Shown one piece after another: positions 14,160 to 25,029 of a DNA stretch of 39,236 nt. Every line of letters starts with the position of its first letter. Positions within the stretch are counted from its first letter, which is position 1. Made by a program: the position numbers and the translations under genes. The notes under the pieces are model-generated. The model saw nothing but the letters and a program-made list of their open reading frames with translations. It did no database searches and was not told the origin of the DNA. Where the stretch lies: the NCBI GenBank assembly GCA_963663405.2, contig CAXXSM010000163.1, forward strand, positions 1 through 39,236, read 5' to 3'. The DNA is from a bacterium. GTDB taxonomy: Bacteria; Hinthialibacterota; Hinthialibacteria; Hinthialibacterales; Hinthialibacteraceae.

Positions 14160-14368
14160 ACAGACAAAACTGCCGAATGATAACTCTTTCATTTATAAGC
14201 GCTTAAGAAAAATCATCCTTTCCACGTCTCTATTTCTTCGACGAAATCGCCGAATCTAAAATCAGGTCCAATCGATCTCCTTGATCGATATATAATTCAC
14301 TAAACTCATAAATTTCAATGACTTATAATCTTTTTACTTAAAAAAACGAATGTGGCATGTTTCTTTCT
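14160..14368 (+). promoter_or_regulatory. sigma54-type promoter region 1: two activator boxes, IHF-like box, -24/-12 element
   Basis: ACAGAC-N6-GCCGAA (14160-14177), TTCGAC-N6-GCCGAA (14237-14254), TAAACTCATAAATTTCAATGACTTATA (14301-14327), TGGCAT-GTTTC-TTTC (14353-14367, non-canonical -12). Same layout as 18925-19131. Confidence 0.65.
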
Positions 14369-14420
14369 TTATGAAGAGGCAAGAGGAATAAAAGACATTA
14401 CACGCACAAGGAGAGAGATC

Positions 14421-15401
14421 ATGAAGAAACATTATGTAATCATCACTTTAGGAATCTTATCAGCGGGATTGTTTGCGCTCACATCACTGGCCCAAAATAA
14501 TGGAAATGGAAAACAAAGGTTATTGGCCACTCCATCCAATTGCCAAGTTGAATCAGCACAGTATGGAGTCCAAATGAAGGGACAGGGTAATGGACGTGGG
14601 CAGGGCGCTCAAAACGCGAATTCGCAAGCCGGCCCTAATAGTAAACGGATGAAGGGACAAGGTAATGGACGTGGGCGGGGAGCCTTTTGCGCCAATTCGC
14701 AATCCGGCCCTAATAGTAAACGGATGAAGGGACAAGGCAATGGACGTGGGCGGGGAGCCTTTTGCGCCAATTCGCAATCCGGCCCTAATAGTAAACGGAT
14801 GAAGGGACAAGGCAATGGACGTGGGCGGGGAGCCTTTTGCGCCAATTCGCAATCCGGTCCTCATGGTAAACGGATGATGGGACAGGGCAATGGACGTGGG
14901 CAGGAAGCCTTTTGCGCTAATTTGCAAGCCGGTTCTAATGGCAGGCGGATGATGGGACAAGGTAATGGACGTGGGCAGGGAGCCTTTTGCGCCAATTCGC
15001 AATCTGGCCCTCATGGTAAACGGATGATGGGACAAGGTAATGGACGTGGACAGGGAGCCTTTTGCGCCAATTCGCAATCTGGCCCTCATGGTAAACGGAT
15101 GATGGGACAAGGTAATGGACGTGGGCAGGGAGCCTTTTGCGCCAATTCGCAATCTGGCCCTCATGGTAAACGGATGAAGGGACAAGGTAATGGACGTGGG
15201 CAGGGAGCCTTTTGCGCCAATTCGCAATCCGGACCTCATAGCAGACGGATGATGGGACAGGGCAATGGACGTGGGCAGGGCGCTCTATCCGCTAATGCGC
15301 AATCCGGCCCTCATGGCAAGGGTCAGGGCAAAGTAAGGCGTCTGGGTAATCAATATGGAATTGAGAAAATAAATAGTGACGAAGTAGAGAATGAACAATA
15401 G
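14421..15401 (+). CDS. Secreted low-complexity tandem-repeat protein (ten 25-aa Gly/Arg/Gln/Asn/Met/Cys repeats)
   Basis: ATG 14421 after an AAGGAGAG RBS; signal peptide MKKHYVIITLGILSAGLFALTSLA; repeat consensus M(K/M)GQGNGRG(Q/R)GAFCANSQSGP(H/N)(G/S)KR. Confidence 0.85.
   Translation: MKKHYVIITLGILSAGLFALTSLAQNNGNGKQRLLATPSNCQVESAQYGVQMKGQGNGRGQGAQNANSQAGPNSKRMKGQGNGRGRGAFCANSQSGPNSKRMKGQGNGRGRGAFCANSQSGPNSKRMKGQGNGRGRGAFCANSQSGPHGKRMMGQGNGRGQEAFCANLQAGSNGRRMMGQGNGRGQGAFCANSQSGPHGKRMMGQGNGRGQGAFCANSQSGPHGKRMMGQGNGRGQGAFCANSQSGPHGKRMKGQGNGRGQGAFCANSQSGPHSRRMMGQGNGRGQGALSANAQSGPHGKGQGKVRRLGNQYGIEKINSDEVENEQ
14574..15323 (+). repeat. Ten tandem 75-bp coding repeats
   Basis: Unit ATGA(A/T)GGGACAAGGTAATGGACGTGGGC(A/G)GGGAGCCTTTTGCGCCAATTCGCAATC...AAACGG repeats with a 75-nt period; variants are clustered (units 2-3 alike, units 6-8 alike). 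Confidence 0.95.
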
Positions 15402-15456
15402 TATTGATTCCACTCAATTCATATTCCAGTTATAAATCAATTTGCGATTCGGTAAA

Positions 15457-15492
15457 AGAGACGATGAGGTTATTCAACACCTCATCGTCTCT
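15457..15492 (+). terminator. Strong hairpin, probable intrinsic terminator after the repeat-protein gene
   Basis: 14-bp perfect stem AGAGACGATGAGGT / ACCTCATCGTCTCT with an 8-nt loop; weak U-tract. Confidence 0.6.
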
Positions 15493-15554
15493 CGCTTGTA
15501 TTATATATAATATTGTTATGTCTAATATTGAATGTTTTAAGGAGTTTTAATCCA

Positions 15555-17591
15555 ATGGAAACAACTCCTCATGGAGAACAATCTCCCGCCTTGTTTTTTA
15601 GATTTTCCACGTTTCGAACAATTGTTTTGATTGTTCTGATATTCGTGATTGCATGGATAGGAATCAGCGCTTCGCATTACCTGCAGTCCAAACGGCAAAT
15701 TCGCGAATTATTCAGGCGTCAAGCGCATGAGATGGCTTCTATGTTAGCCCTGAGCGAACGATCCATGACGCGCGCGTTAGAACGAATCGAAGACGAACAA
15801 GCGTCGCGGCTAACAGCGATTGGATATTGGCTTCGCGATTTGGATTCCCGGCAGACACTCTCGCTTACCGAAATCCAGCGAGTGGCGGATGAAAGCAGCG
15901 CGTTCAATATAGTGCTGTTCAAGCCCACTGGAGAGCGTGACATAGGATTGCGAGGAGGAGGCCCAAGGTACGGCGCGCCTCCTTGGGCGGGAAGAGGCCG
16001 CATGGGGAGAGGACAAAATTCCCAGCACGAACATTCCACAACGAGTTTCCTTGAATCCGGGGAGGAAGCGGCTGTTGAAGGTTTTCACAAAGCCGGCCGG
16101 ATGGGGGAATTCCGTTTCTCTGTTTTTGTACGGCGAAAAAACGGAGGCGCGATTTTAATCAATCTAGATACGGCGATTCAGGAACAACTGCGCCGGGATT
16201 TCGGACCAGAGGCGTTGCTTAGCCAATTTACTGAAAGACCGGAGATTCTTTATTTACGACGGAAACAGGCGGGAACGATCGATATCGATCTGGGCCATTT
16301 CGATCCCACCGAGAATGAATCCAACGCTGAAGCTGTGGAAGTCAACATTCCAGACCAAGATGATTCCTCACTCATCGTAGGATTTGACAACACCGCCATA
16401 CGCAGAACAGAATACGAACTGTTGCAGCGATTACTCCTATCCGCCGGTTTAGCTGCGACTCTAGGAGCCTTGTTGATCATATGGTCGAGACTGACCAGAC
16501 GTCATGGTCAATTGGCGAAAACCTTGGCGCAAATCTCATCCTACCATCGAACCGTGTTGGAAACGATGGATGACGCTGTACTCGCATGGAACGAACACGC
16601 GGGGATGACATTTTGGAATCCGAAAGCCGAATCCTTGTTTCCCGAATTGAGGAATGCCAAATCCACGGGTAAACTGCCATCTCCAATCGCGAAAATCGCA
16701 GACCAAGCGCGGGAGCCCAATTATGAAACAGTGTTCGACCTTGAAGATAAAGAGAAAGGCCCACGCCGGTTCCGGGTAGTCGAACAACATATCGAGCAAC
16801 CTATCCAAACTCGTTTGCTGCTGCTTTCCGATGTGACCGCTGTAGAAAACGCAACACGGGAAAAAGAGAAACGCGAGCATGTAGAAGCGCTGGCGCGGGC
16901 GGCTTCCGGCGTCGCTCATGAAGTGAGAAATCCTTTGAACGCCATTGATATGACGATTCAGACGATGTGTATGGAACCCTCGACGCTCAACGAGGAAGAT
17001 CGCATCACACTTGAATCCCTGCGGGATGAAATCAAACGCATCAATCGAATGGTGGAACACTTCCTCGCCTATGGAAGGCCCCAACCTCCTGTCTTTTCGG
17101 AAACCGATCTAGGCGCTTTGCTAGAGGACGCTGTATCCTTTATGAAACCAGCCGCACAGGAAAAAAGCGTCGAATTACAATTCAAATCCTCAGGTCCTTT
17201 GAAATTCCAGGCGGACGCGCAACAGATCCGCCAGGCGTTGCTCAATATCATCCTGAATGCGATCGAAGCCTCTTCTGAAGGAAGCGTCATTGATCTCCAC
17301 GTGGAATTAGGAGAGGATGGAATCCGCTGCGTCTGCACGGATCATGGAACAGGGATGACGGACGAACAAATTAATACGATCTTTGATCCCTATGTGACAC
17401 ACAAACCCGAAGGCACAGGTTTAGGGATGTGTATCGTAAAACAAATCATAGAATCTCATCAAGGAAGAATCATCATCCATAGTAAACCGGGAGAAGGAAC
17501 GGCGATCGCGTTTCACTTTCCATACGATAAAAAGGATGATTCTCCCGTTAAGGAGCCGGTGAATGCTGAAAAAAACGATTCTCGTCATTGA
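15555..17591 (+). CDS. Membrane sensor histidine kinase (two TMs, periplasmic sensor, PAS-like, HisKA, HATPase); NtrB/ZraS-like
   Basis: H-box GVAHEVRNPLNAI, N-box QALLNIILNAIEA, DHGTGM, IFDPYVT, GTGLGM. Start ATG 15555 after a TAAGGAG RBS. Confidence 0.93.
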   Translation: METTPHGEQSPALFFRFSTFRTIVLIVLIFVIAWIGISASHYLQSKRQIRELFRRQAHEMASMLALSERSMTRALERIEDEQASRLTAIGYWLRDLDSRQTLSLTEIQRVADESSAFNIVLFKPTGERDIGLRGGGPRYGAPPWAGRGRMGRGQNSQHEHSTTSFLESGEEAAVEGFHKAGRMGEFRFSVFVRRKNGGAILINLDTAIQEQLRRDFGPEALLSQFTERPEILYLRRKQAGTIDIDLGHFDPTENESNAEAVEVNIPDQDDSSLIVGFDNTAIRRTEYELLQRLLLSAGLAATLGALLIIWSRLTRRHGQLAKTLAQISSYHRTVLETMDDAVLAWNEHAGMTFWNPKAESLFPELRNAKSTGKLPSPIAKIADQAREPNYETVFDLEDKEKGPRRFRVVEQHIEQPIQTRLLLLSDVTAVENATREKEKREHVEALARAASGVAHEVRNPLNAIDMTIQTMCMEPSTLNEEDRITLESLRDEIKRINRMVEHFLAYGRPQPPVFSETDLGALLEDAVSFMKPAAQEKSVELQFKSSGPLKFQADAQQIRQALLNIILNAIEASSEGSVIDLHVELGEDGIRCVCTDHGTGMTDEQINTIFDPYVTHKPEGTGLGMCIVKQIIESHQGRIIIHSKPGEGTAIAFHFPYDKKDDSPVKEPVNAEKNDSRH

Positions 17592-18948
17592 AGACGAAGC
17601 CTCACAGCGAAAGGCGTTATGCGCGTTTCTTCATAAAAAAAAGTATCAGATCAATGAGGCCGCCAATCAACAAAACGCGCTGGAACTTTTTGAGAAAGAA
17701 ACATTCGACCTCGTATTGAGCGATATGCGCCTTCCTGACGGCAGCGGCGAAACAATTTTGGAACATGTCAAGAAAATCCGGCCCGATGTTCCAGTGATTA
17801 TCATGACCGCGTATGGTAATACATCGCAGGCTGTAGCCGCGATGCGCAACGGAGCGGCCGATTATATAACCAAGCCACTCGATCTCAATGAACTCGATTT
17901 GATCATCCAACGCGAATTGAAACACTCCACTTTGGTCTCCGAAAACCAGCGTTTGCGTGAAATCGTCGAACAACACAGCCGCGCCAAGAATATGGTCGCC
18001 AACAGCCCGGCAATGCAAAACGTCGTCAATACAGCGTTACGCGCCGCGGATTCAGACGCCACGATTCTCATTCTCGGAGAAAGCGGGACAGGTAAGGAAA
18101 TTCTCGCTCGCGCCGTTCACGCCGCCAGCCCACGGGCGGATAATGCGTTCGTGCCCATCCACTGCGCCGCCATGCCGGAAGGATTGATTCAAAGCGAATT
18201 ATTCGGTCATGAAAAAGGCGCGTTCACAGGCGCCACAGCCCGGCGTCAAGGACGATTTGAACAGGCTGATCAGGGAACCGTCTTTATCGACGAAGTCGGC
18301 GACATCCCTCTGAACATACAGGTTCAGCTATTACGAGTTCTTCAAGAACGGAATTTCGAACGTGTCGGCGGCAATCAAACAATAACCGTTAATGTACGAA
18401 TCATCGCCGCCACAAACAAAAATATCCAAGAAGCGATACAAAACCAGGAATTCAGAGAGGATCTTTATTACCGGCTCGGAGTGATTACCGTAGAGTTGCC
18501 TCCCCTCCGAAAACGGAGAGAAGATATCCCGCCCCTGATCCAACATTTTCTAAAACGCTACGCCCCAGGCCGTTCATTGGAAATCTCCCGTGAAGCCCTG
18601 GACCGGTTGATGAAATATCATTGGCCGGGAAATATCCGGGAGTTGGAGAATGTAATTGAGCGAGCGGTCGTTTTATCCCGTGAAGACATAATCTCCACAT
18701 CCGATTTACCTTCCCACATTGCCGCAGATTCCGGCGAGCGGACAATATCGTTAGATCGTTCCCTTCCCGAGTTGGTCCAGGACCTTGAACAGACACTCAT
18801 CCGTCAAGCGCTCCTAAAAGCAAACGGCAACCAATCCCAGGCGGCGCGATTGTTGGGAATCAGCGAACGCAACCTCCGCTACAAAATCAAAAAATACGGC
18901 GATTCCGATCGTGAATCTGATCAATTCGACGAATCCGGCGATCTCTAA
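17563..18948 (+). CDS. sigma54-dependent response regulator (REC-AAA+-Fis HTH), NtrC/ZraR/AtoC family
   Basis: REC (ILVIEDE, DLVLSDMRLP), GESGTGKE, SELFGHEKGAFTGA, FIDEVGD, WPGNIRELEN, GNQSQAARLLGI; overlaps the kinase 3' end. Confidence 0.96.
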   Translation: MLKKTILVIEDEASQRKALCAFLHKKKYQINEAANQQNALELFEKETFDLVLSDMRLPDGSGETILEHVKKIRPDVPVIIMTAYGNTSQAVAAMRNGAADYITKPLDLNELDLIIQRELKHSTLVSENQRLREIVEQHSRAKNMVANSPAMQNVVNTALRAADSDATILILGESGTGKEILARAVHAASPRADNAFVPIHCAAMPEGLIQSELFGHEKGAFTGATARRQGRFEQADQGTVFIDEVGDIPLNIQVQLLRVLQERNFERVGGNQTITVNVRIIAATNKNIQEAIQNQEFREDLYYRLGVITVELPPLRKRREDIPPLIQHFLKRYAPGRSLEISREALDRLMKYHWPGNIRELENVIERAVVLSREDIISTSDLPSHIAADSGERTISLDRSLPELVQDLEQTLIRQALLKANGNQSQAARLLGISERNLRYKIKKYGDSDRESDQFDESGDL

Positions 18949-19131
18949 TCTACTCAATTCACTAATCTTACAGCCAATCCTTTTTATTCCTCTATAATCG
19001 TTCGACCATTTCGTCGAACAACACGCGATTCATCCTACTATTAAATTCTGAAATAGAAAATACATAAACTCAATAAAAACAATATGTTATAGAAAATAGA
19101 AAAATAAAAAACTCTTGGCACGAGTCTTGTA
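18925..19131 (+). promoter_or_regulatory. sigma54-type promoter region 2: two activator boxes, IHF-like box, -24/-12 element
   Basis: TTCGAC-N6-GGCGAT (18925-18942, inside the regulator 3' end), perfect palindrome TTCGAC-CATTTC-GTCGAA (19001-19018), TAAACTCAATAAAAACAATATGTTATA (19065-19091), TGGCAC-GAGTC-TTGTA (19116-19131). Confidence 0.75.
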
Positions 19132-19188: not shown

Positions 19189-20016
19189 ATGAAGAAGCAA
19201 TGGTATTATCAATCCGTCATTATTGGCCTCGCGATCAGTTTTCTTTGCGCAGCCAATATCAGCGAAGCGCAAGGCCGCCGGGGAAAAGGACTTTTGATTT
19301 CCGGCTCCCAGAGAACAAACCAGGGAGCCTTCCAAAACAAAGGAATTCAAGGACAAGGTTTGGGTCAGGGATATTTCTTCATCGATCTTGATGGAGACGG
19401 GATCTGTGATAACACGAACGGGCAAGCAGCGCTGGATCCATTAAGTGACGCTGAGGCAGTCACTCTCACATTTATGCGGGAAGAGGAAAAACTGGCCCGT
19501 GATGTCTATCTAGCCCTATACGACTTATGGTCAAATCCCGTGTTTTCAATGATCGCCAGTTCCGAACAAAAACATATGGATGCGATCAAACGTCAGCTGG
19601 ACACGTATGGTCTTACCGATCCCATTCAAGATACAGGCGTCTTCACAAACGGAGAATTACAATCCCTGTATGATTCTTTACTGACTCAAGGAAGCCAATC
19701 TGTATTGGAAGCGTTGAAAGTGGGCGCTCTAATTGAGGAAGTGGATATCGAAGATCTTCAAATCGCCATCACCGAAACAGAGAATCCCGCTTTGTTACAA
19801 GTTTATACGAACCTGTTGAAAGGCTCAGAGAACCATCTTCGCGCATTCGTCCGGCAAATCGAATTCCTGGGTGAAACCTACAACGCGCAACACCTTTCAC
19901 AGGAGATTGTGGATGAGATTCTTGCCAACACCAACAATCAAGGCGGCCGCCGGAATAACCGGGGAATCACGATTCTTGGAAATTCAAAACGCGGAAATGG
20001 ATACGGCGCCCGGTAA
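19189..20016 (+). CDS. Secreted DUF2202 ferritin-like protein
   Basis: Signal peptide; FMREEEKLARDVY, IASSEQKHM, GALIEEVDIEDL, LLKGSENHLRAF (paired ExxH diiron-type motifs); N-terminal FIDLDGDGICD loop. Confidence 0.88.
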   Translation: MKKQWYYQSVIIGLAISFLCAANISEAQGRRGKGLLISGSQRTNQGAFQNKGIQGQGLGQGYFFIDLDGDGICDNTNGQAALDPLSDAEAVTLTFMREEEKLARDVYLALYDLWSNPVFSMIASSEQKHMDAIKRQLDTYGLTDPIQDTGVFTNGELQSLYDSLLTQGSQSVLEALKVGALIEEVDIEDLQIAITETENPALLQVYTNLLKGSENHLRAFVRQIEFLGETYNAQHLSQEIVDEILANTNNQGGRRNNRGITILGNSKRGNGYGAR

Positions 20017-20105: not shown

Positions 20106-20139
20106 GGAGAGGAGGTGAGGATAATCTCACCTCCTCTCC
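20106..20139. terminator. Hairpin between convergent genes, probable bidirectional terminator
   Basis: Perfect 14-bp stem GGAGAGGAGGTGAG / CTCACCTCCTCTCC with a 6-nt loop; A-rich tract upstream serves the minus strand. Confidence 0.7.
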
Positions 20140-20176: not shown

Positions 20177-22099
20177 TTACTGCAGTTCCCAGTCTATAAC
20201 AATGGAGGCGGCTGATGGAATCGTGAATGGAACGGATTGCAAGTATCCGGTTGGGCCATCACCTGAGTTCGCGGAATCAGCCGAGAAATTCCCGTCGATA
20301 TAAGCGATATGGTCGTTCAGTGAATTATGGAGACCAAGATCTTGCGCGACTTGATTGCCTGACAACCAAGTACTTCCATAACCTTCCGCGCCCGTTATTT
20401 CTTCTTCCCAGTTGGTCATGTCGCCCATTTCAAAGTCAGAATTGGGGAACGCCAATTCAGCGGTCTCGCCATCCCAGAAATAAAAGTCATCTACGCCCAA
20501 CCATGCCCACTCGCTGGTCAGTTGGTCGATGATGAAAAACCGGGCTTGCTTGCCTTGGTGTTCCTCTTGAATATAAAAACGGTACGGGGGATAGTTCCAT
20601 TCATCGATTCCGCCATTGGCATATTGCTCGCGGTTCCAACCGCCGCCTTGGCTGCGCACTTTATAGGCGTAGTCGGAGGAATCGGTAAATTCGCCGTTGG
20701 CGTTCATATCGACTTGCAGCTGGATATCTTTGACATTCCCATCCGGCTGCGCTTTATATCCCGTCTGTCCAATATCAAAGGAGGTAAAAACGCTGCTGGC
20801 GGCATCGGGGATCGGCTGGATGACAAAGACATCAGAGCGAAGTTCGATCCCGGTGTTTCCCCGCACTCCATGATCGTTATTCGCGTCACCTGGTGTGGAG
20901 CCGGAAGCGACCCATACACGGCCTTCGCGAGAGAAATTCGCTCCAGGCCATGCGAAAAAGGTCCAATCGCCTACCGCGCCGGCGGATTTAATTTGGGTCC
21001 ACCCGGGAAGCCCGCCGGAAGGGTGATCGGACAACGCGCGGATGGGAATGCGGCCATTACTTGGATTATCGATGAATCCTTCTGGAAATTCATCTTCGAA
21101 GCCTTCTTCAAAATTCCCGTTACGGATGACGGAGGTATCGTAGTTCATACGAATGTTATCCAATCCGATTCCATCAAACGTATCGTTATCAACCGCAACA
21201 ACTTGCGCGCGGCGTCCTTCCAATCCGGACGTATTCAACATATTGGCTTGCAGGGTGATTCGGTCTTCGTCACTATCGTCAAAAAGGACGCCTTTCAAGG
21301 GCACATCCACACCCTCGGTGTATTCCCCATCGGGATCTTCGGTTTCAGTTCCCACATCGACATAAACCATCAATCCGTTTTCCGTCAACCAAGCGCCTGG
21401 TTTGTCAAAATACGCTGAAACTGGACCGGCGAATGTCCCATAGACAAAACTCGAAACAGGACTTAATACGAACGGTTCGGATTCAATGACAGCGATGGTT
21501 TCATCGCCGTTGATCTGGGTGTTATAGAATTTATCTGTGTTTGAAGAGAGGCTGAATTCTGTATCAACGGTAATCAGCTGATCGGCGGTCGCATCGCCTT
21601 CAACGATCGTCCAACCATTCAAGTTCGGCTCTGCATCAAACCAGCCGTTTGGAACGTTATTGGGAACAACCAATCCATCTGCGTTATTATGACGGATCGA
21701 ATTGACCGCGATATACGCATCGGGCGTTTTGTCGACGATGCGAAGTTTTACGGTTTCTCCCGCATATTCCTCCAGCGCAATGATTACATTCATCCATCCC
21801 GCTTCGGATGTTAGATTGTCGACAAAAATTGTGTCCTGATTGGTTCTAGATTCCCGTACGATTGAAGGATCTTCGGACATCCAATATTCATATGTTCCAT
21901 CCGCTCCGACATCGACACCAATGTCAATTGTTGTATCAGGCGCGGTTTGATCCGCGTGCAAAGCCCACCCATTGGATACCATTTGCACGACCAGAAAGGT
22001 GGGATTATTGCCGTTGTTGTTCGTCGCCGATTGGGAAGGCGCGGCAAGCAACATACATAAGGCCATGATCCCTACGGCGCGTAATACATTTGTTTTCAT
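20177..22099 (-). CDS. Secreted acidic protein with three internal beta-sandwich (CBM-like) repeats
   Basis: AAGGAG RBS, signal peptide MKTNVLRAVGIMALCMLLAAPSQS; three copies of N..F(D/E)..G...(G/N)W, S.(P/V)F.(I/L) and G......VD......(I/L).(V/L)(D/N) patterns. Confidence 0.8.
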   Translation of the reverse strand: MKTNVLRAVGIMALCMLLAAPSQSATNNNGNNPTFLVVQMVSNGWALHADQTAPDTTIDIGVDVGADGTYEYWMSEDPSIVRESRTNQDTIFVDNLTSEAGWMNVIIALEEYAGETVKLRIVDKTPDAYIAVNSIRHNNADGLVVPNNVPNGWFDAEPNLNGWTIVEGDATADQLITVDTEFSLSSNTDKFYNTQINGDETIAVIESEPFVLSPVSSFVYGTFAGPVSAYFDKPGAWLTENGLMVYVDVGTETEDPDGEYTEGVDVPLKGVLFDDSDEDRITLQANMLNTSGLEGRRAQVVAVDNDTFDGIGLDNIRMNYDTSVIRNGNFEEGFEDEFPEGFIDNPSNGRIPIRALSDHPSGGLPGWTQIKSAGAVGDWTFFAWPGANFSREGRVWVASGSTPGDANNDHGVRGNTGIELRSDVFVIQPIPDAASSVFTSFDIGQTGYKAQPDGNVKDIQLQVDMNANGEFTDSSDYAYKVRSQGGGWNREQYANGGIDEWNYPPYRFYIQEEHQGKQARFFIIDQLTSEWAWLGVDDFYFWDGETAELAFPNSDFEMGDMTNWEEEITGAEGYGSTWLSGNQVAQDLGLHNSLNDHIAYIDGNFSADSANSGDGPTGYLQSVPFTIPSAASIVIDWELQ

Positions 22100-22266: not shown

Positions 22267-25029
22267 TTAGTAGTGGATTAAGAAGGTTTGATTTAATTCG
22301 AAATCAGTGTATGTTTTTTGAGGTTGATGAAGCCAATATACTGTAATATTATCGATTTTTTTCAGGTCTCCAAATCCAAAATGGAGAATGTGAGAGTTTT
22401 GTGATAAGTAACCAGATCCTCCATCGACAGTTCGAGTCCATTGCCGTTCTCCACGTTTCGCCACAACCCGAACGCCATACGTTTGCGCTGATGTTCCTGC
22501 CAGTTTGACTTGAAGCCAATTGCCTGAAGGTGTCTTATTTTCCAACAACCGGGGGGAATCGTCTATACAATTGATAACAATATCCATATCTCCATCGCCG
22601 TCAAAATCCAATAGCGCGCTTCCTCTTCCCGCGATAGTTTCTATTGACTCAAAAGAGATTTCTTCATTTGTAAAGAATTCACTGTGCTGATTTTTGTAAA
22701 ATGAAACGCCTTGGGGATACGTGCGTTTGTTATCCAAATCCTCGACTTGGGGATAGGTATGTCCGTTGACAGTGTATATATCAAGAAAACCATCAGAATC
22801 AAAATCGCAAAATCCAGATCCCCATGTTGTTAACCAGCGCGTGGGAGAAATTAGTTTTAAGGGTCCTCTCATATCGAGAAACTGGTTTCCATCTTTGTTC
22901 TGAAACAAGACGTCAGATTCTTGTTCGTAAGCGGTTATATAAAAATCAAGAAAACCGTCATTGTTGTAATCCCCCACCGCCACACCCATGCTGGCGCCTT
23001 CACGCCCTGATTCATTGACGGCGGCGCCTGAAAAGAAACTGAAATCTTCAAAAACCGCATTCCCTTTATTCTTCAACACATGGTTATAGGTCGAATCGTT
23101 GGAAACATACAAATCCAAGTCGCCATCCAGATCGATATCCGCGAACGTGGCGCCCATCGCCCGCCCTTCAGAGACATTGATTTCACTTGGGCCAGAGAAA
23201 TCAGTAAATGTGCCGTCGCCTTTATTGAGATAGAGTAAATCATCTTGATGCTTTAATCCCATCGGGCCTTTCATCACATCCAATCCATGAAAGTGATCCC
23301 GTAAATCCCCATGTTGAGCAGGATTGAATTCCACATAATTGCCAACATATAAATCCAGATCGCCATCCAAATCCAAATCCCCAAAAACCGCCGCCGCGGC
23401 GTACCCGTGATGATTCAATCCGGCTTCATCGGTTCGATCTGTAAACGTTCCATCACCGTTACTGAGATAGAAGGTGTTGGCGCCGTAGTTGCCGACAAAT
23501 AAATCCAGCCAACCATCATTGTTGACATCCCCGAAAATCGCGCACATGCCCCATCCCATGTCACCCACACCGGCGCTTTCGGTGACATCCGTAAATCTTC
23601 CGTTATCGTTGCGGAACAGCCGGTTCCGCCATTGGGGATCGGGTTTGTCGAGATCTGGCCGGCCATTCACAAAATAGATATCATCATCTCCGTCGTTATC
23701 ATAATCCGCAACCGCGACGCCCGATCCCATCGCATCGATGATCCACCGTTTATCCTTATGGCCCAATCGATGTTGAAAGGAATCCAGTCCGGTTTGTTTG
23801 GAGACTTCTTTGAATTGAAATCGATTGTCCTGCGGCGCCGAATCGGTTGAAGTTTTTGAATCGGCGTTCCATTTAGCTAACGCGGCTCCCAATGCTTTGA
23901 AATTGTCTGATTCTGCAAACCGGTCTTTGTGTTGATTATAGATAGCCTGGCTTTTTGTCACTTCCTTTGCGCCGAAGAGTGACCACCCTTTGATTCCGAT
24001 ATACTGTTCTGAATTTTGGATAGACGAATCTTTAATTTCATTTAATAGTTGTAAGCACTCTCGGAACTCTTTCCGATCGTACCACAGTTGCGCGAGAGTC
24101 ATTCGCAGGGGATCGTTGATTAAATTGTGTTGACGTAAGTTCGTTAAATACTGGATCGCTTGGTTATGCTGCTGGATGGCGATCAGTTCCCGCGTCAGAA
24201 CTTCGCGCATCTCTATGGGGATGGTGTAAGCGTTTTCGTACATATAGCGTAATTGTCTGTATTGGTTTGGATTCCAGTTCCGCATGTATTTCAATCGCTG
24301 CTGTACTTGGTCGAACTCTTCGTTCCGGCCAAGGCGGGATAATGACGTGCGCATGGCGCTATACGCTTCGCGAAAGAAGGGATAAACCGCAACCGCTCTG
24401 TTTAAGAGCGAAACCGCCTTTTCATCATTGCCCAAGCGGGTTTCCAATTTTCCCAATTCGAAAAGGGATCGGAGATGTTTTGGATGTGTGGCGAGAACGG
24501 ATTCCAACGTGAGTTTTGCTTCTTTGTTGTTTCCTTCTTCGGCGTAAATGCTGCCTAGCAAGAAACGCGCGTCGGGGTGTTTAGCGTCCAATTTAAGAAT
24601 CGCGTTGATCCGATTTTTCGCTACATCGATTTCTCCCAACGTGCGCGCAATGGCCGCGCATTTGTAGAGCAAATCCGCATTATCCGGCGCCGCTTCAATC
24701 GCTTTTCCACTCGTGTCAATAGCTCCATCAATATCCCCCGACCGCCACATGGCTTGTGATAAAAAGAACAAGAAATCTGGATTGGAACCGCTTTTTTCGG
24801 CCAGGCACTTTAAAAAGGGAATCCAGTCTCCTTGCGGGGAATGTTGTTTGAGAAACGTTTCCAATTGTTCTTGTTCCGCCGAAGTCAGAGTATGGGGATA
24901 CTCTTGCAACATAACCGAGGCTTTGGAAAACTGATTATCCCGCAATTTGTCAAGGATTTCATCGATACTCGTTGAAGTTGTGGTTCCAGTTTGAGTAACG
25001 ATATAGAATATGAGAAAAAAAATGTACAT
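22267..25029 (-). CDS. TPR + FG-GAP/VCBS beta-propeller + ASPIC/UnbV (CRTAC1-like) secreted protein
   Basis: N-terminal TPR helices; repeated DYDNDGDDDIY, DVNNDGWLDLF, DLDLDGDLDLY, DFDGDGDMDI loops; C-terminal GGSGYLSQN...LHFGFG and V.W (ASPIC/UnbV). Confidence 0.9.
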   Translation of the reverse strand: MYIFFLIFYIVTQTGTTTSTSIDEILDKLRDNQFSKASVMLQEYPHTLTSAEQEQLETFLKQHSPQGDWIPFLKCLAEKSGSNPDFLFFLSQAMWRSGDIDGAIDTSGKAIEAAPDNADLLYKCAAIARTLGEIDVAKNRINAILKLDAKHPDARFLLGSIYAEEGNNKEAKLTLESVLATHPKHLRSLFELGKLETRLGNDEKAVSLLNRAVAVYPFFREAYSAMRTSLSRLGRNEEFDQVQQRLKYMRNWNPNQYRQLRYMYENAYTIPIEMREVLTRELIAIQQHNQAIQYLTNLRQHNLINDPLRMTLAQLWYDRKEFRECLQLLNEIKDSSIQNSEQYIGIKGWSLFGAKEVTKSQAIYNQHKDRFAESDNFKALGAALAKWNADSKTSTDSAPQDNRFQFKEVSKQTGLDSFQHRLGHKDKRWIIDAMGSGVAVADYDNDGDDDIYFVNGRPDLDKPDPQWRNRLFRNDNGRFTDVTESAGVGDMGWGMCAIFGDVNNDGWLDLFVGNYGANTFYLSNGDGTFTDRTDEAGLNHHGYAAAAVFGDLDLDGDLDLYVGNYVEFNPAQHGDLRDHFHGLDVMKGPMGLKHQDDLLYLNKGDGTFTDFSGPSEINVSEGRAMGATFADIDLDGDLDLYVSNDSTYNHVLKNKGNAVFEDFSFFSGAAVNESGREGASMGVAVGDYNNDGFLDFYITAYEQESDVLFQNKDGNQFLDMRGPLKLISPTRWLTTWGSGFCDFDSDGFLDIYTVNGHTYPQVEDLDNKRTYPQGVSFYKNQHSEFFTNEEISFESIETIAGRGSALLDFDGDGDMDIVINCIDDSPRLLENKTPSGNWLQVKLAGTSAQTYGVRVVAKRGERQWTRTVDGGSGYLSQNSHILHFGFGDLKKIDNITVYWLHQPQKTYTDFELNQTFLIHY

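Follow-up and report, generated by a model that had tools for sequence, protein, structure and literature searches.

A predicted sigma-54-controlled signalling operon with an exported cysteine-containing tandem-repeat protein in a bacterium of the Hinthialibacterota

The DNA analysed here (the window) is a stretch of 39,236 nucleotides, contig CAXXSM010000163.1 of GenBank assembly GCA_963663405.2, from a bacterium of the Hinthialibacteraceae (phylum Hinthialibacterota). Its subject is a gene on the plus strand at 14421-15401, the repeat gene, which encodes an exported protein built largely of ten 25-residue tandem units and is followed by genes for a sensor histidine kinase and a sigma-54-dependent response regulator. 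This operon context is the most informative feature of the locus and had been left unused in the finding of a preliminary description, which was made from the letters of the window. Because the repeat gene stands first in a stress-type signalling operon, its product is probably a protein of the cell envelope made on induction, rather than a precursor of hormone-like peptides.

The repeat gene and its product

The gene and its parts are as follows.

14421-15401, plus strand: repeat-protein gene, 326 aa, ATG start, stop codon included in the coordinates
14408-14417, plus strand: ribosome-binding site, with AAGGAG at 14408-14413, seven bases before the ATG
14421-14495, plus strand: predicted Sec signal peptide, 25 aa, no lipobox, taken from the translation
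14574-15323, plus strand: array of ten 75-bp (25-aa) tandem units, delimited by Tandem Repeats Finder and in-register cutting

The signal peptide was recognised by eye from its basic N-terminal end, hydrophobic core and S-L-A before the cut, and residues 6-22 form a helix in the AlphaFold2 (AF2) model. An alternative GTG start at 14352 would give a longer open reading frame (ORF) that overlaps the promoter-like site described below, and it is unlikely to be the true start. Tandem Repeats Finder returned a single array at 14574-15316 with a period of 75, 9.9 copies, 91% matches, no indels and a score of 1094. One native 25-residue unit reads MMGQGNGRGQGAFCANSQSGPHGKR and is rich in Gly, Gln, Asn and Arg.

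The architecture given in the preliminary description, a signal peptide followed by ten 25-residue units, was upheld by ORF translation, Tandem Repeats Finder and in-register cutting, and its account of the units was borne out in detail. Eight units carry a single Cys (one each in units 2-9, none in units 1 and 10), nine end in a dibasic pair (among units 1-9, KR in seven and RR in two; unit 10 ends in KG), four contain G-K-R (units 4, 6, 7 and 8), the single acidic residue of the array is the E in unit 5, and the short C-terminal tail is indeed acidic (25 residues, five of them acidic). A ninth Cys (residue 41) had been overlooked; it lies in a 26-residue linker between the signal peptide and the array. 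The block kept in all ten units is a Gly/Asn/Arg stretch and not the dibasic boundary, and the junction K-R-M-K occurs four times in the array.

The mature protein has 301 residues, a net charge of +36, a pI of 11.7 and 24% Gly. Its basic residues are 27 Arg and 16 Lys, with Gly-Arg-Gly in each unit, and its candidate ligand residues are 8+1 Cys, 15 Met and 6 His. The array itself consists of 26% Gly, about 4% large hydrophobic residues (Phe, Leu) and 6% Met, with no Asp at all. In a charge-hydropathy comparison the mean hydropathy of 0.365 fell below the boundary of 0.456 at the mean net charge of 0.12, that is, in the disordered region. The AF2 single-sequence model had a mean predicted local distance difference test score (pLDDT) of 58 and a predicted template modelling score (pTM) of 0.52, with a pLDDT of 60-69 over the array, which was drawn with two strands per unit. 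A fold search with this model gave no match at E ≤ 0.001 (best 1.4, the weak matches being beta-helix proteins). Judged from its signal peptide and composition, the repeat protein appears to be periplasmic and disordered.

Both remaining plus frames contain stops across the gene, and a minus-strand ORF of 228 aa is also open across the array. Differences between units fall 16, 15 and 29 times at codon positions 1, 2 and 3, respectively, with a mean non-synonymous divergence (dN) of 0.098, a mean synonymous divergence (dS) of 0.38 and a ratio of 0.26. Third positions of the minus frame fall on the first positions of the plus frame, which vary less, so the plus frame is taken as the coding one. 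An independent run from another study (X3) holds a relative of about 94% identity, in which the frame of the repeat gene is intact and ends one codon earlier. The 19 listed coding differences between this relative and the window comprise 12 synonymous and 7 non-synonymous changes, with no indel listed. Against the 23% synonymous sites of the gene this gives a binomial P of 2e-4, or of 6e-3 if six unlisted differences are all taken as non-synonymous. By these sequence comparisons the repeat gene is a real coding gene under purifying selection. In an RNA run (X5), one 100-nt piece was found, inside the kinase gene only.

The DNA of unit 6 is identical to that of unit 8, and unit 7 differs by one base. 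In X3 each flank has one contig that reaches into the array, and short contigs match its interior. The array is bridged by no Logan contig of X3, nor by any of X1 or X2, which are probably runs of the source sample. Because units 6-8 are near-identical and no contig bridges the array, ten units is the count as assembled only. At codon 65 (window 14613), in unit 1, the position held by Cys in units 2-9 is Asn (AAC), and in the X3 relative it is Tyr (TAC). This Tyr codon is one step from the Cys codon TGC, a hint that unit 1 formerly had a Cys.

Regulatory sites, signalling genes and related loci

The regulatory sites and the genes that follow the repeat gene are listed below. Mismatches in the palindromes are counted against TTCGAC-N6-GTCGAA and those in the promoter-like sites against TGGCAC-N5-TTGC.

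14160-14177, plus strand: degenerate distal enhancer-like site, 4 mismatches, 193 nt upstream of the -24 element
14237-14254, plus strand: proximal enhancer palindrome (upstream activating sequence) TTCGAC-N6-GcCGAA, one mismatch, 116 nt upstream of the -24 element
14353-14367, plus strand: sigma-54-type promoter-like site TGGCAT-N5-TTTC before the repeat gene, 2 mismatches
15457-15492, plus strand: 14-bp stem-loop with a weak T tract, between the repeat gene and the kinase gene
15555-17591, plus strand: sensor histidine kinase, HisKA and HATPase_c, with a double-Cache-like periplasmic domain
17563-18948, plus strand: sigma-54-dependent response regulator (receiver, AAA+ and Fis-type helix-turn-helix domains), overlapping the kinase gene
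18925-18942, plus strand: distal enhancer-like site of the DUF2202 promoter, 2 mismatches, 191 nt upstream of the -24 element
19001-19018, plus strand: perfect palindrome TTCGAC-N6-GTCGAA, 115 nt upstream of the second -24 element
19116-19130, plus strand: sigma-54-type promoter-like site TGGCAC-N5-TTGT of the DUF2202 gene, 1 mismatch
19189-20016, plus strand: exported DUF2202 ferritin-like protein, after a 240-nt gap following the regulator gene

Palindromes with at most 2 mismatches occur seven times in the window against 2.8 expected, a number reached by 3 of 100 shuffles. The 8.44-Mb assembly contains 34 palindromes with at most 1 mismatch, seven of which have a sigma-54-like site within 300 nt, and of these seven only the two at this locus have the 115/116-nt spacing. 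An exact 11-mer is common to the upstream regions of the repeat gene and the DUF2202 gene. In the X3 relative the C at 14250 is replaced by T, which makes the proximal palindrome perfect, and no difference is listed between 14353 and 14392, though the surrounding intergenic DNA has diverged by about 15%. The distal site at 14160-14177 keeps its right half-site with one mismatch and is weak by itself; its position at 193 nt agrees with the 191-196 nt of the DUF2202 promoter and of two orthologous loci (L035 and L036). Thus a putative regulator-binding palindrome and a putative sigma-54 promoter stand upstream of the gene for the accessory protein, as is expected of a ZraPSR-type arrangement. 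A fold of 15395-15550, which spans the stem-loop, gave z = -4.33, and none of 200 shuffles folded as well; the stem-loop is predicted to act as a partial terminator or an RNA-stabilising hairpin.

The regulator matched Response_reg, Sigma54_activat (239.9 bits) and HTH_8. An AF2 model of the kinase sensor (pLDDT 74) gave 33 fold matches at E ≤ 0.001 (best E = 2.8e-5), to double-Cache domains such as those of KinD, Tlp3, Mlp24 and PctA. Between two conserved blocks of the sensor lies a Gly/Arg-rich loop (alignment residues 137-157), predicted to be disordered and modelled with a pLDDT below 50. The composition of this loop (window 15555-16520; L035-L038) varies among orthologues in five genomes and resembles that of the cognate exported target; in one of them (G014), loop and target are both Met/Gly-rich. 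A mimicry of the sensor loop by the repeat unit was considered and rejected, the kinase ranking 1400th of 17,538 ORFs in a Smith-Waterman comparison. A complex prediction for the kinase periplasmic domain with the mature repeat protein scored 0.00 and is no evidence either way. The DUF2202 protein consists of an N-terminal Gly/Arg-rich module with one D-G-D-G-I-C-D motif, the DUF2202 domain and a Gly/Arg-rich tail.

Orthologues of the kinase periplasmic domain were found in 5 of 60 other genomes searched (40-47% identity), and the sensor is present in six of the 35 genomes of the phylum, the window's own included. Four orthologous loci with enough flanking DNA were compared (L035, L036, L037 from genome G021 and L038 from genome G014). 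In all four, the kinase-regulator pair adjoins a gene for an exported protein of 223-340 aa, and each of these target genes has a sigma-54-type promoter with 0 or 1 mismatch. The palindrome lies at 116 (L035), 117 (L036), 117 (L037) and 102 nt (L038), and a second, distal palindrome lies at 191-196 nt in two of the four loci (L035 and L036). Other neighbours at these loci differ from those in the window. The G014 kinase gene is itself directly preceded by TGGCAT-N5-TTTC, about 80 nt before its start and with no gene between, and by a perfect palindrome 104 nt upstream of that site. With G014 having that promoter directly before the kinase, the repeat gene appears to sit between an autoregulatory promoter and the kinase gene. 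Elsewhere in the G021 chromosome, a DUF2202 gene carries two palindromes and a sigma-54-like site.

The four orthologous targets share F-V-D-A-D-G-D-G-(I/V)-C-D motifs, paired LTXXQ motifs and Gly/Arg/Met-rich segments, the last containing Cys in three of the four. Scores for the LTXXQ family (cut-off 24.3 bits) were 42.6 for the G014 protein and, below the cut-off, 22.4, 17.2 and 15.8 for the other three; weak matches to CpxP/Spy were obtained with all four, far below the NCBIfam cut-offs. A PDB sequence search with the G014 LTXXQ protein gave 0 matches at E ≤ 1. The G014 target (L038:10351-11373) has a D-G-I-N-D plus LTXXQ module that is tripled in tandem repeats of about 58 residues. In G021, the LTXXQ target is followed by a DUF4405 (cytochrome b561-like) membrane protein (L037:8197-9033, minus strand), and in an unrelated small genome (G054, locus L022) a DUF2202 protein is flanked by a membrane protein that looks similar to DUF4405 and by a histidine kinase. 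In an excerpt of a preprint on ferrosomes, DUF2202 and DUF4405 proteins are named among the conserved proteins of ferrosome iron-storage gene clusters.

A profile built from the four orthologous targets matched the DUF2202 protein of the window over its N-terminal 77 positions (E = 2.3e-9) and collected 359 proteins at E ≤ 1e-5. Among the 120 matches listed, many are small exported proteins with tails rich in Gly, Arg, Gln, Asn, His and Cys. This D-G-D-G family is spread over Clostridia, Coriobacteriia, Chloroflexota, Desulfuromonadales, Gemmatimonadales, metagenome-assembled genomes with Hydrogenedentota in their titles and Methanosarcinales. Many of its members carry the precomputed Pfam label PF27309, which denotes an uncharacterised family. 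Neighbourhoods were compared in 80 loci (L048-L127) from genome contigs. Recurrent neighbours were RsgI-like anti-sigma factors (27 loci), extracytoplasmic function (ECF) sigma factors (16) and ABC ATPases (14); 21 of the 80 loci had a neighbour from a response-regulator cluster whose representative is a sigma-54 regulator, and metal-type neighbours were heavy-metal P-type ATPases (3) and chromate transporters (3). Given the RsgI-like and ECF sigma neighbours, the D-G-D-G proteins look like general targets of extracytoplasmic signalling.

A palindrome with a sigma-54-like site was found in five of the 80 loci (L115, L061, L079, L048 and L060). In L115 and L061, which come from other phyla, a kinase and a sigma-54 regulator are followed by the site and then by an exported D-G-D-G repeat protein. 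The arrangement recurs in L079, where the regulator could not be resolved; L048 corresponds to the G020 locus itself, and L060 is doubtful. Relatives of the sensor domain were found only in L048 among the 80 loci, and kinases at the Gemmatimonadales-type loci have unrelated sensors. As the sensors from other phyla have no detectable kinship to that of the window, it is the wiring of regulator, site and target that appears conserved while sensors and targets vary. The L079 and L115 targets contain four to six repeats of about 45 residues; together with the G014 repeats, they show that tandem amplification is recurrent among the targets of the regulon.

The other genes of the window encode, around the operon, a GH16 protein, FtsX/ABC proteins, a heparinase II/III-like enzyme, then the histidine kinase, response regulator and DUF2202 protein, a 640-aa ORF (20177-22099, minus strand, no Pfam match) and an FG-GAP/TPR protein. 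Between this ORF and the DUF2202 gene, which are convergent, a strong GC-rich hairpin of 14 bp (20106-20139) is probably a bidirectional terminator. The D-G-D-G/LTXXQ profile also touches the FG-GAP/TPR/ASPIC protein (window 22591-23019, minus strand; E = 1.9e-4), presumably through calcium-binding D-x-D-x-D-G loops.

Relatives of the repeat protein and known systems

Searches for relatives of the repeat protein covered protein families, protein collections, genomes and contigs. No Pfam or NCBIfam family matched at E ≤ 10. A word-indexed search of 5.8 billion proteins, restricted to near-length entries (179-571 aa), gave 177 candidates, none at E ≤ 1e-3. With phmmer, 38 of 1.84 billion representatives matched at E ≤ 1e-3 (best 5e-18) with identities of 24-36%, most of them being far longer than the repeat protein. 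Five of the 38 were examined, four of these by Pfam scan. Three (P0003, P0005 and P0031) are thrombospondin type 3 (TSP_3) repeat proteins (246.5, 107 and 52.5 bits with the TSP_3 model) with a 23-residue period and a G-x-G-R-G-x-A-C-x-N-like core; the best match (E = 5e-18, 24% identity) is an Asn/Gly repeat protein with a 25-residue period and no significant Pfam family; the fifth is an unrelated 267-aa repeat protein. The E-values are inflated by the alignment of repeat on repeat, and by sequence the 38 matches are unrelated repeat proteins.

In its own assembly the repeat protein matched only itself (single copy), and 60 other genomes held no convincing relative (best non-self E = 8.1e-4 at 18 bits). 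The ESM Atlas was uninformative (best score 0.77). Scans for the back-translated motif gave 0 and 2 matches in two passes over metagenome contigs and 0 in one over genome contigs; the two matches are attributed to chance because they lie in a LysR-type gene and in a non-coding-looking contig. BLASTP against the exported D-G-D-G proteins reached a best E of 3.8, and the profile of the four orthologous targets did not match the repeat protein at E ≤ 1. The repeat protein thus belongs, on the searches made, to no described family, and no description of it was found in the open-access literature searched.

Within the genome, the best non-self Smith-Waterman match of the 25-residue unit (score 72; next best 58) was a 491-aa exported repeat protein (C22:54234-55709, minus strand) of about six 38-residue Gly/Arg/Met-rich units with acidic residues. 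This protein starts with a signal peptide; its gene is about 3 kb from one for a sigma-54 regulator, and no palindrome/sigma-54 pair was seen upstream. Two further ORFs (C93:5210-7549 and C68:11993-12610, both minus strand) have long Met/Gly-rich low-complexity stretches. The DUF2202 protein ranked 18th of the 17,538 genome ORFs in comparison with the repeat unit. An origin of the 5' part of the repeat gene from a duplicated 5' part of the DUF2202 gene found no support: against the DUF2202 protein the pre-repeat region ranked 8094th, and 1653rd when the signal peptide was added.

In its logic the system is akin to ZraPSR and CpxPAR and, by the score cut-offs applied to its sequences, falls outside these families. 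According to PMC12314577, ZraPSR is a functional homologue of CpxPAR, and zinc and lead activate it. As in ZraPSR of Enterobacteria, a sensor kinase stands beside an NtrC-type sigma-54 regulator, and a small exported accessory protein is encoded by a gene with a separate (here predicted) sigma-54 promoter; in the related genomes the likeness extends to an accessory protein with LTXXQ motifs and Gly-rich low-complexity segments that bear Cys. ZraP is reportedly, by the title of one paper, a periplasmic chaperone and repressor of ZraSR. The repeat protein, however, lacks an LTXXQ motif and is not similar to ZraP, and PF07813 (LTXXQ) had no match at E ≤ 0.1 anywhere in the 82%-complete assembly. 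The regulator, unlike ZraR, scored 431.9 bits against a cut-off of 760, the window kinase has a double-Cache-like sensor, and the second target is a ferritin-like DUF2202 protein. The zraP gene is divergent from zraSR, whereas the repeat gene is upstream of and co-directional with the kinase gene.

SilE is described, in part of PMC5008109, as an intrinsically disordered periplasmic molecular sponge. The repeat protein is like SilE/PcoE in being exported and predicted to be disordered, with regularly spaced candidate soft-metal ligands under a two-component system, and unlike them in having no sequence similarity or family match, ligands that include Cys, a strongly cationic character and exact tandem units. 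It shares with the D-G-D-G proteins the regulator family and promoter geometry, a signal peptide and Gly/Arg/Gln/Asn low-complexity segments; those proteins have scattered Cys and His, frequent internal tandem repeats and an N-terminal module also present in the window DUF2202 protein, but their acidic D-G-D-G motifs are absent from the repeat protein. A likeness to TSP_3 (PF02412) is seen in the G-x-G-R-G-x-A-C-x-N-like core and in the related D-G-D-G motifs of other proteins of the regulon. The repeat protein differs in giving no Pfam match, in a period of 25 versus 23 and in lacking the second Cys, and the calcium-binding Asp positions are all Asn, Gln, Gly or Ala.

An inducible envelope protein and the rival readings

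The reading tentatively preferred is that the repeat protein is an inducible periplasmic polycation, disordered and specific to the lineage, that uses its Cys, Met and His residues to buffer a metal or an oxidant and may feed back on the sensor. Under this model, the kinase would sense an envelope signal, the regulator would bind the palindrome and the repeat gene would be switched on. The operon would consist of the repeat gene, stem-loop, kinase and regulator under sigma-54-dependent autoregulation, with the DUF2202 protein co-regulated, and the stem-loop would keep the repeat-gene transcript more abundant than the kinase and regulator transcript. Periplasmic thiols (8), thioethers (15 Met) and imidazoles (6 His) could then soak up a soft metal or an oxidant. 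By analogy, the protein may act on its sensor as ZraP and CpxP do in their systems, and may function like the ZraP/CpxP accessory or SilE-type sponge proteins without homology to them. The regulatory part of this reading, taken alone, is highly probable. Indirect links to metals exist in the zinc-associated ZraP within the LTXXQ family (PMC12314577; titles cited in PMC6737893), in the DUF2202/DUF4405 proteins of ferrosome clusters and in the His/Cys tails common in the wider family. The repeat protein most likely originated within this lineage, when low-complexity Gly/Arg-rich sequence like that of the regulon's other exported proteins was amplified in tandem.

The metal or redox sponge had been one proposal of the preliminary description. 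It stands as the best fit to the sigma-54 regulon context and the disordered composition; it finds no backing in a metal motif or homology, and the terminal units lack Cys. Several observations weigh against it and against the wider model. No canonical metal-binding motif is present in the protein, its net charge of +36 makes cation binding unfavourable unless soft ligands are used, and it has no homology to ZraP, CpxP, Spy or SilE. Cys may not be what selection keeps, since the diverged terminal units retain the Gly/Asn/Arg block and not the Cys. In none of the other five genomes that have an orthologous sensor was a copy of the protein recognisable; there, then, the system works without it. 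Tested with the ZraS model, the kinase scored 164.7 bits where the cut-off is 479, and matched in the kinase core only; it is no ZraS orthologue. Double-Cache folds usually bind small organic ligands, and the modelled sensor suggests such a small organic signal. On the promoter side, matches to the sigma-54 pattern by itself are no more frequent in the window than expected (29 observed, 30.7 expected), the repeat gene has TTTC in place of TTGC as its -12 element, and rpoN was not found in the 82%-complete assembly (no match to TIGR02395), where Sigma54_DBD gave only a 20.7-bit sub-threshold match on contig C110. Given that rpoN is present in all four related genomes searched and that the genome does encode sigma-54 activators, the gene probably lies in the missing 18% or so of the assembly.

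The same charge and composition could serve a different purpose. A polycation of net charge +36 and pI 11.7 might bind lipopolysaccharide, sulfated or uronic glycans, polyphosphate or DNA, and neutralise, cross-link or phase-separate with the polymer, with Cys adding reversible disulfides; the odd number of Cys (9) favours intermolecular bonds. The four K-R-M-K junctions match the heparin-binding pattern XBBXBX, and the upstream gene encodes the heparinase II/III-like enzyme, with other glycan-degrading genes in the window. That adjacency looks accidental, however, as the heparinase gene lacks its own palindrome and sigma-54 site and the neighbours differ at the orthologous loci, and the other members of the regulon are acidic-motif, LTXXQ or ferritin-like proteins, not polycations. 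Polyanion binding or condensate formation, the third proposal of the preliminary description, is on balance unlikely and stays a serious rival. It is improbable that the gene is a young one with little function of its own, in which tandem expansion in the leader of the kinase operon opened a frame whose effect is mainly regulatory (through spacing, translation-coupled attenuation via the stem-loop, or a transcription sink). The gene-free promoter before the G014 kinase, the lack of a homologue in protein or contig searches and the identical DNA of units 6 and 8, which indicates recent amplification, would all fit this. They are opposed by the signal peptide, the good ribosome-binding site and the intact 326-codon frame, as well as by the dN/dS among units and the excess of synonymous changes in the frame-keeping relative. 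A folded beta-solenoid, in which each unit would be one two-stranded coil with Cys, Asn and Phe ladders forming a structural or binding scaffold, is likewise given little weight. It is what the AF2 model draws, with its two strands per unit, its pTM and the pLDDT of its array, and both the weak beta-helix fold matches and a best sequence match of equal 25-residue period agree with it. Structure predictors, however, are known to draw regular solenoids for any tandem repeat; the mean pLDDT and the best fold E-value of only 1.4 are poor, and an array so rich in Gly with so little Phe and Leu and 6% Met would make a poor solenoid core.

Very improbable is the multi-core precursor, also proposed in the preliminary description, in which a protease would cut after the dibasic pairs and release up to nine cationic 23-25-mers, eight with one Cys, as signals or antimicrobials in the manner of the fungal Kex2-processed repeat proteins (KEPs). 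The criteria used to mine fungal genomes for KEPs, as given in a section of PMC7329392, are a signal peptide and highly similar repeats separated by dibasic sites, and both features are present here (the signal peptide by eye, KR or RR in 9 of 10 units). The bacterial host, by contrast, has no Golgi or Kex2, a processing enzyme has not been identified, and the context is that of a stress regulon and not of a biosynthetic cluster. As the preliminary description had itself noted, no protease or modifying enzyme is encoded nearby; none was found among the genes within about 10 kb, nor any transporter for a precursor, so that the window neighbours include none of the clustered enzymes or transporters expected beside a precursor of a ribosomally synthesised and post-translationally modified peptide. 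One match to a proprotein-convertase P-domain exists in the assembly (39.5 bits, at the end of contig C131), but this fragment has no visible catalytic domain, and omptin gave 0 matches in the 82%-complete assembly. PF01082 (peptidylglycine monooxygenase) had no match in the genome, which is uninformative since the control matched no genome either. The predicted peptides would be Gly/Gln/Asn-rich and not amphipathic, basic residues beside Gly or Met also occur in kinase sensor loops and related tails where they are not unit boundaries, and it is not the boundary that is conserved over the ten units. The proposal accordingly drew no support beyond the dibasic boundaries themselves. A version under two-component and sigma-54 control, in which a periplasmic or outer-membrane protease would release peptides that dimerise through disulfides or carry metal as diffusible stress or interference signals, has as slim a chance. 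No description of a bacterial dibasic-processed repeat precursor was found in the open-access literature searched; if real, it would be a prokaryotic counterpart of the KEPs and of animal prohormones.

If the preferred reading of an inducible periplasmic sponge is true, the locus would be a clear example of low-complexity sequence that was amplified in tandem and so gave an envelope-stress regulon a new exported effector. What would be conserved is the sigma-54 regulator with TTCGAC-N6-GTCGAA about 116 nt from the promoter, and the effector would be swapped between lineages: an LTXXQ protein, a DUF2202 ferritin-like fusion, D-G-D-G repeat arrays or, here, a Cys/Met/His polycation. This defines a testable regulon in a poorly known phylum and links it to a large uncharacterised family of small exported proteins, which in Clostridia-type genomes adjoin genes for ECF sigma and RsgI-like anti-sigma factors; loci of this kind are also present in records titled Hydrogenedentota. 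The repeat protein would in turn provide a compact model for the handling of metals or oxidants by thiols and thioethers on a disordered, cationic periplasmic chain.

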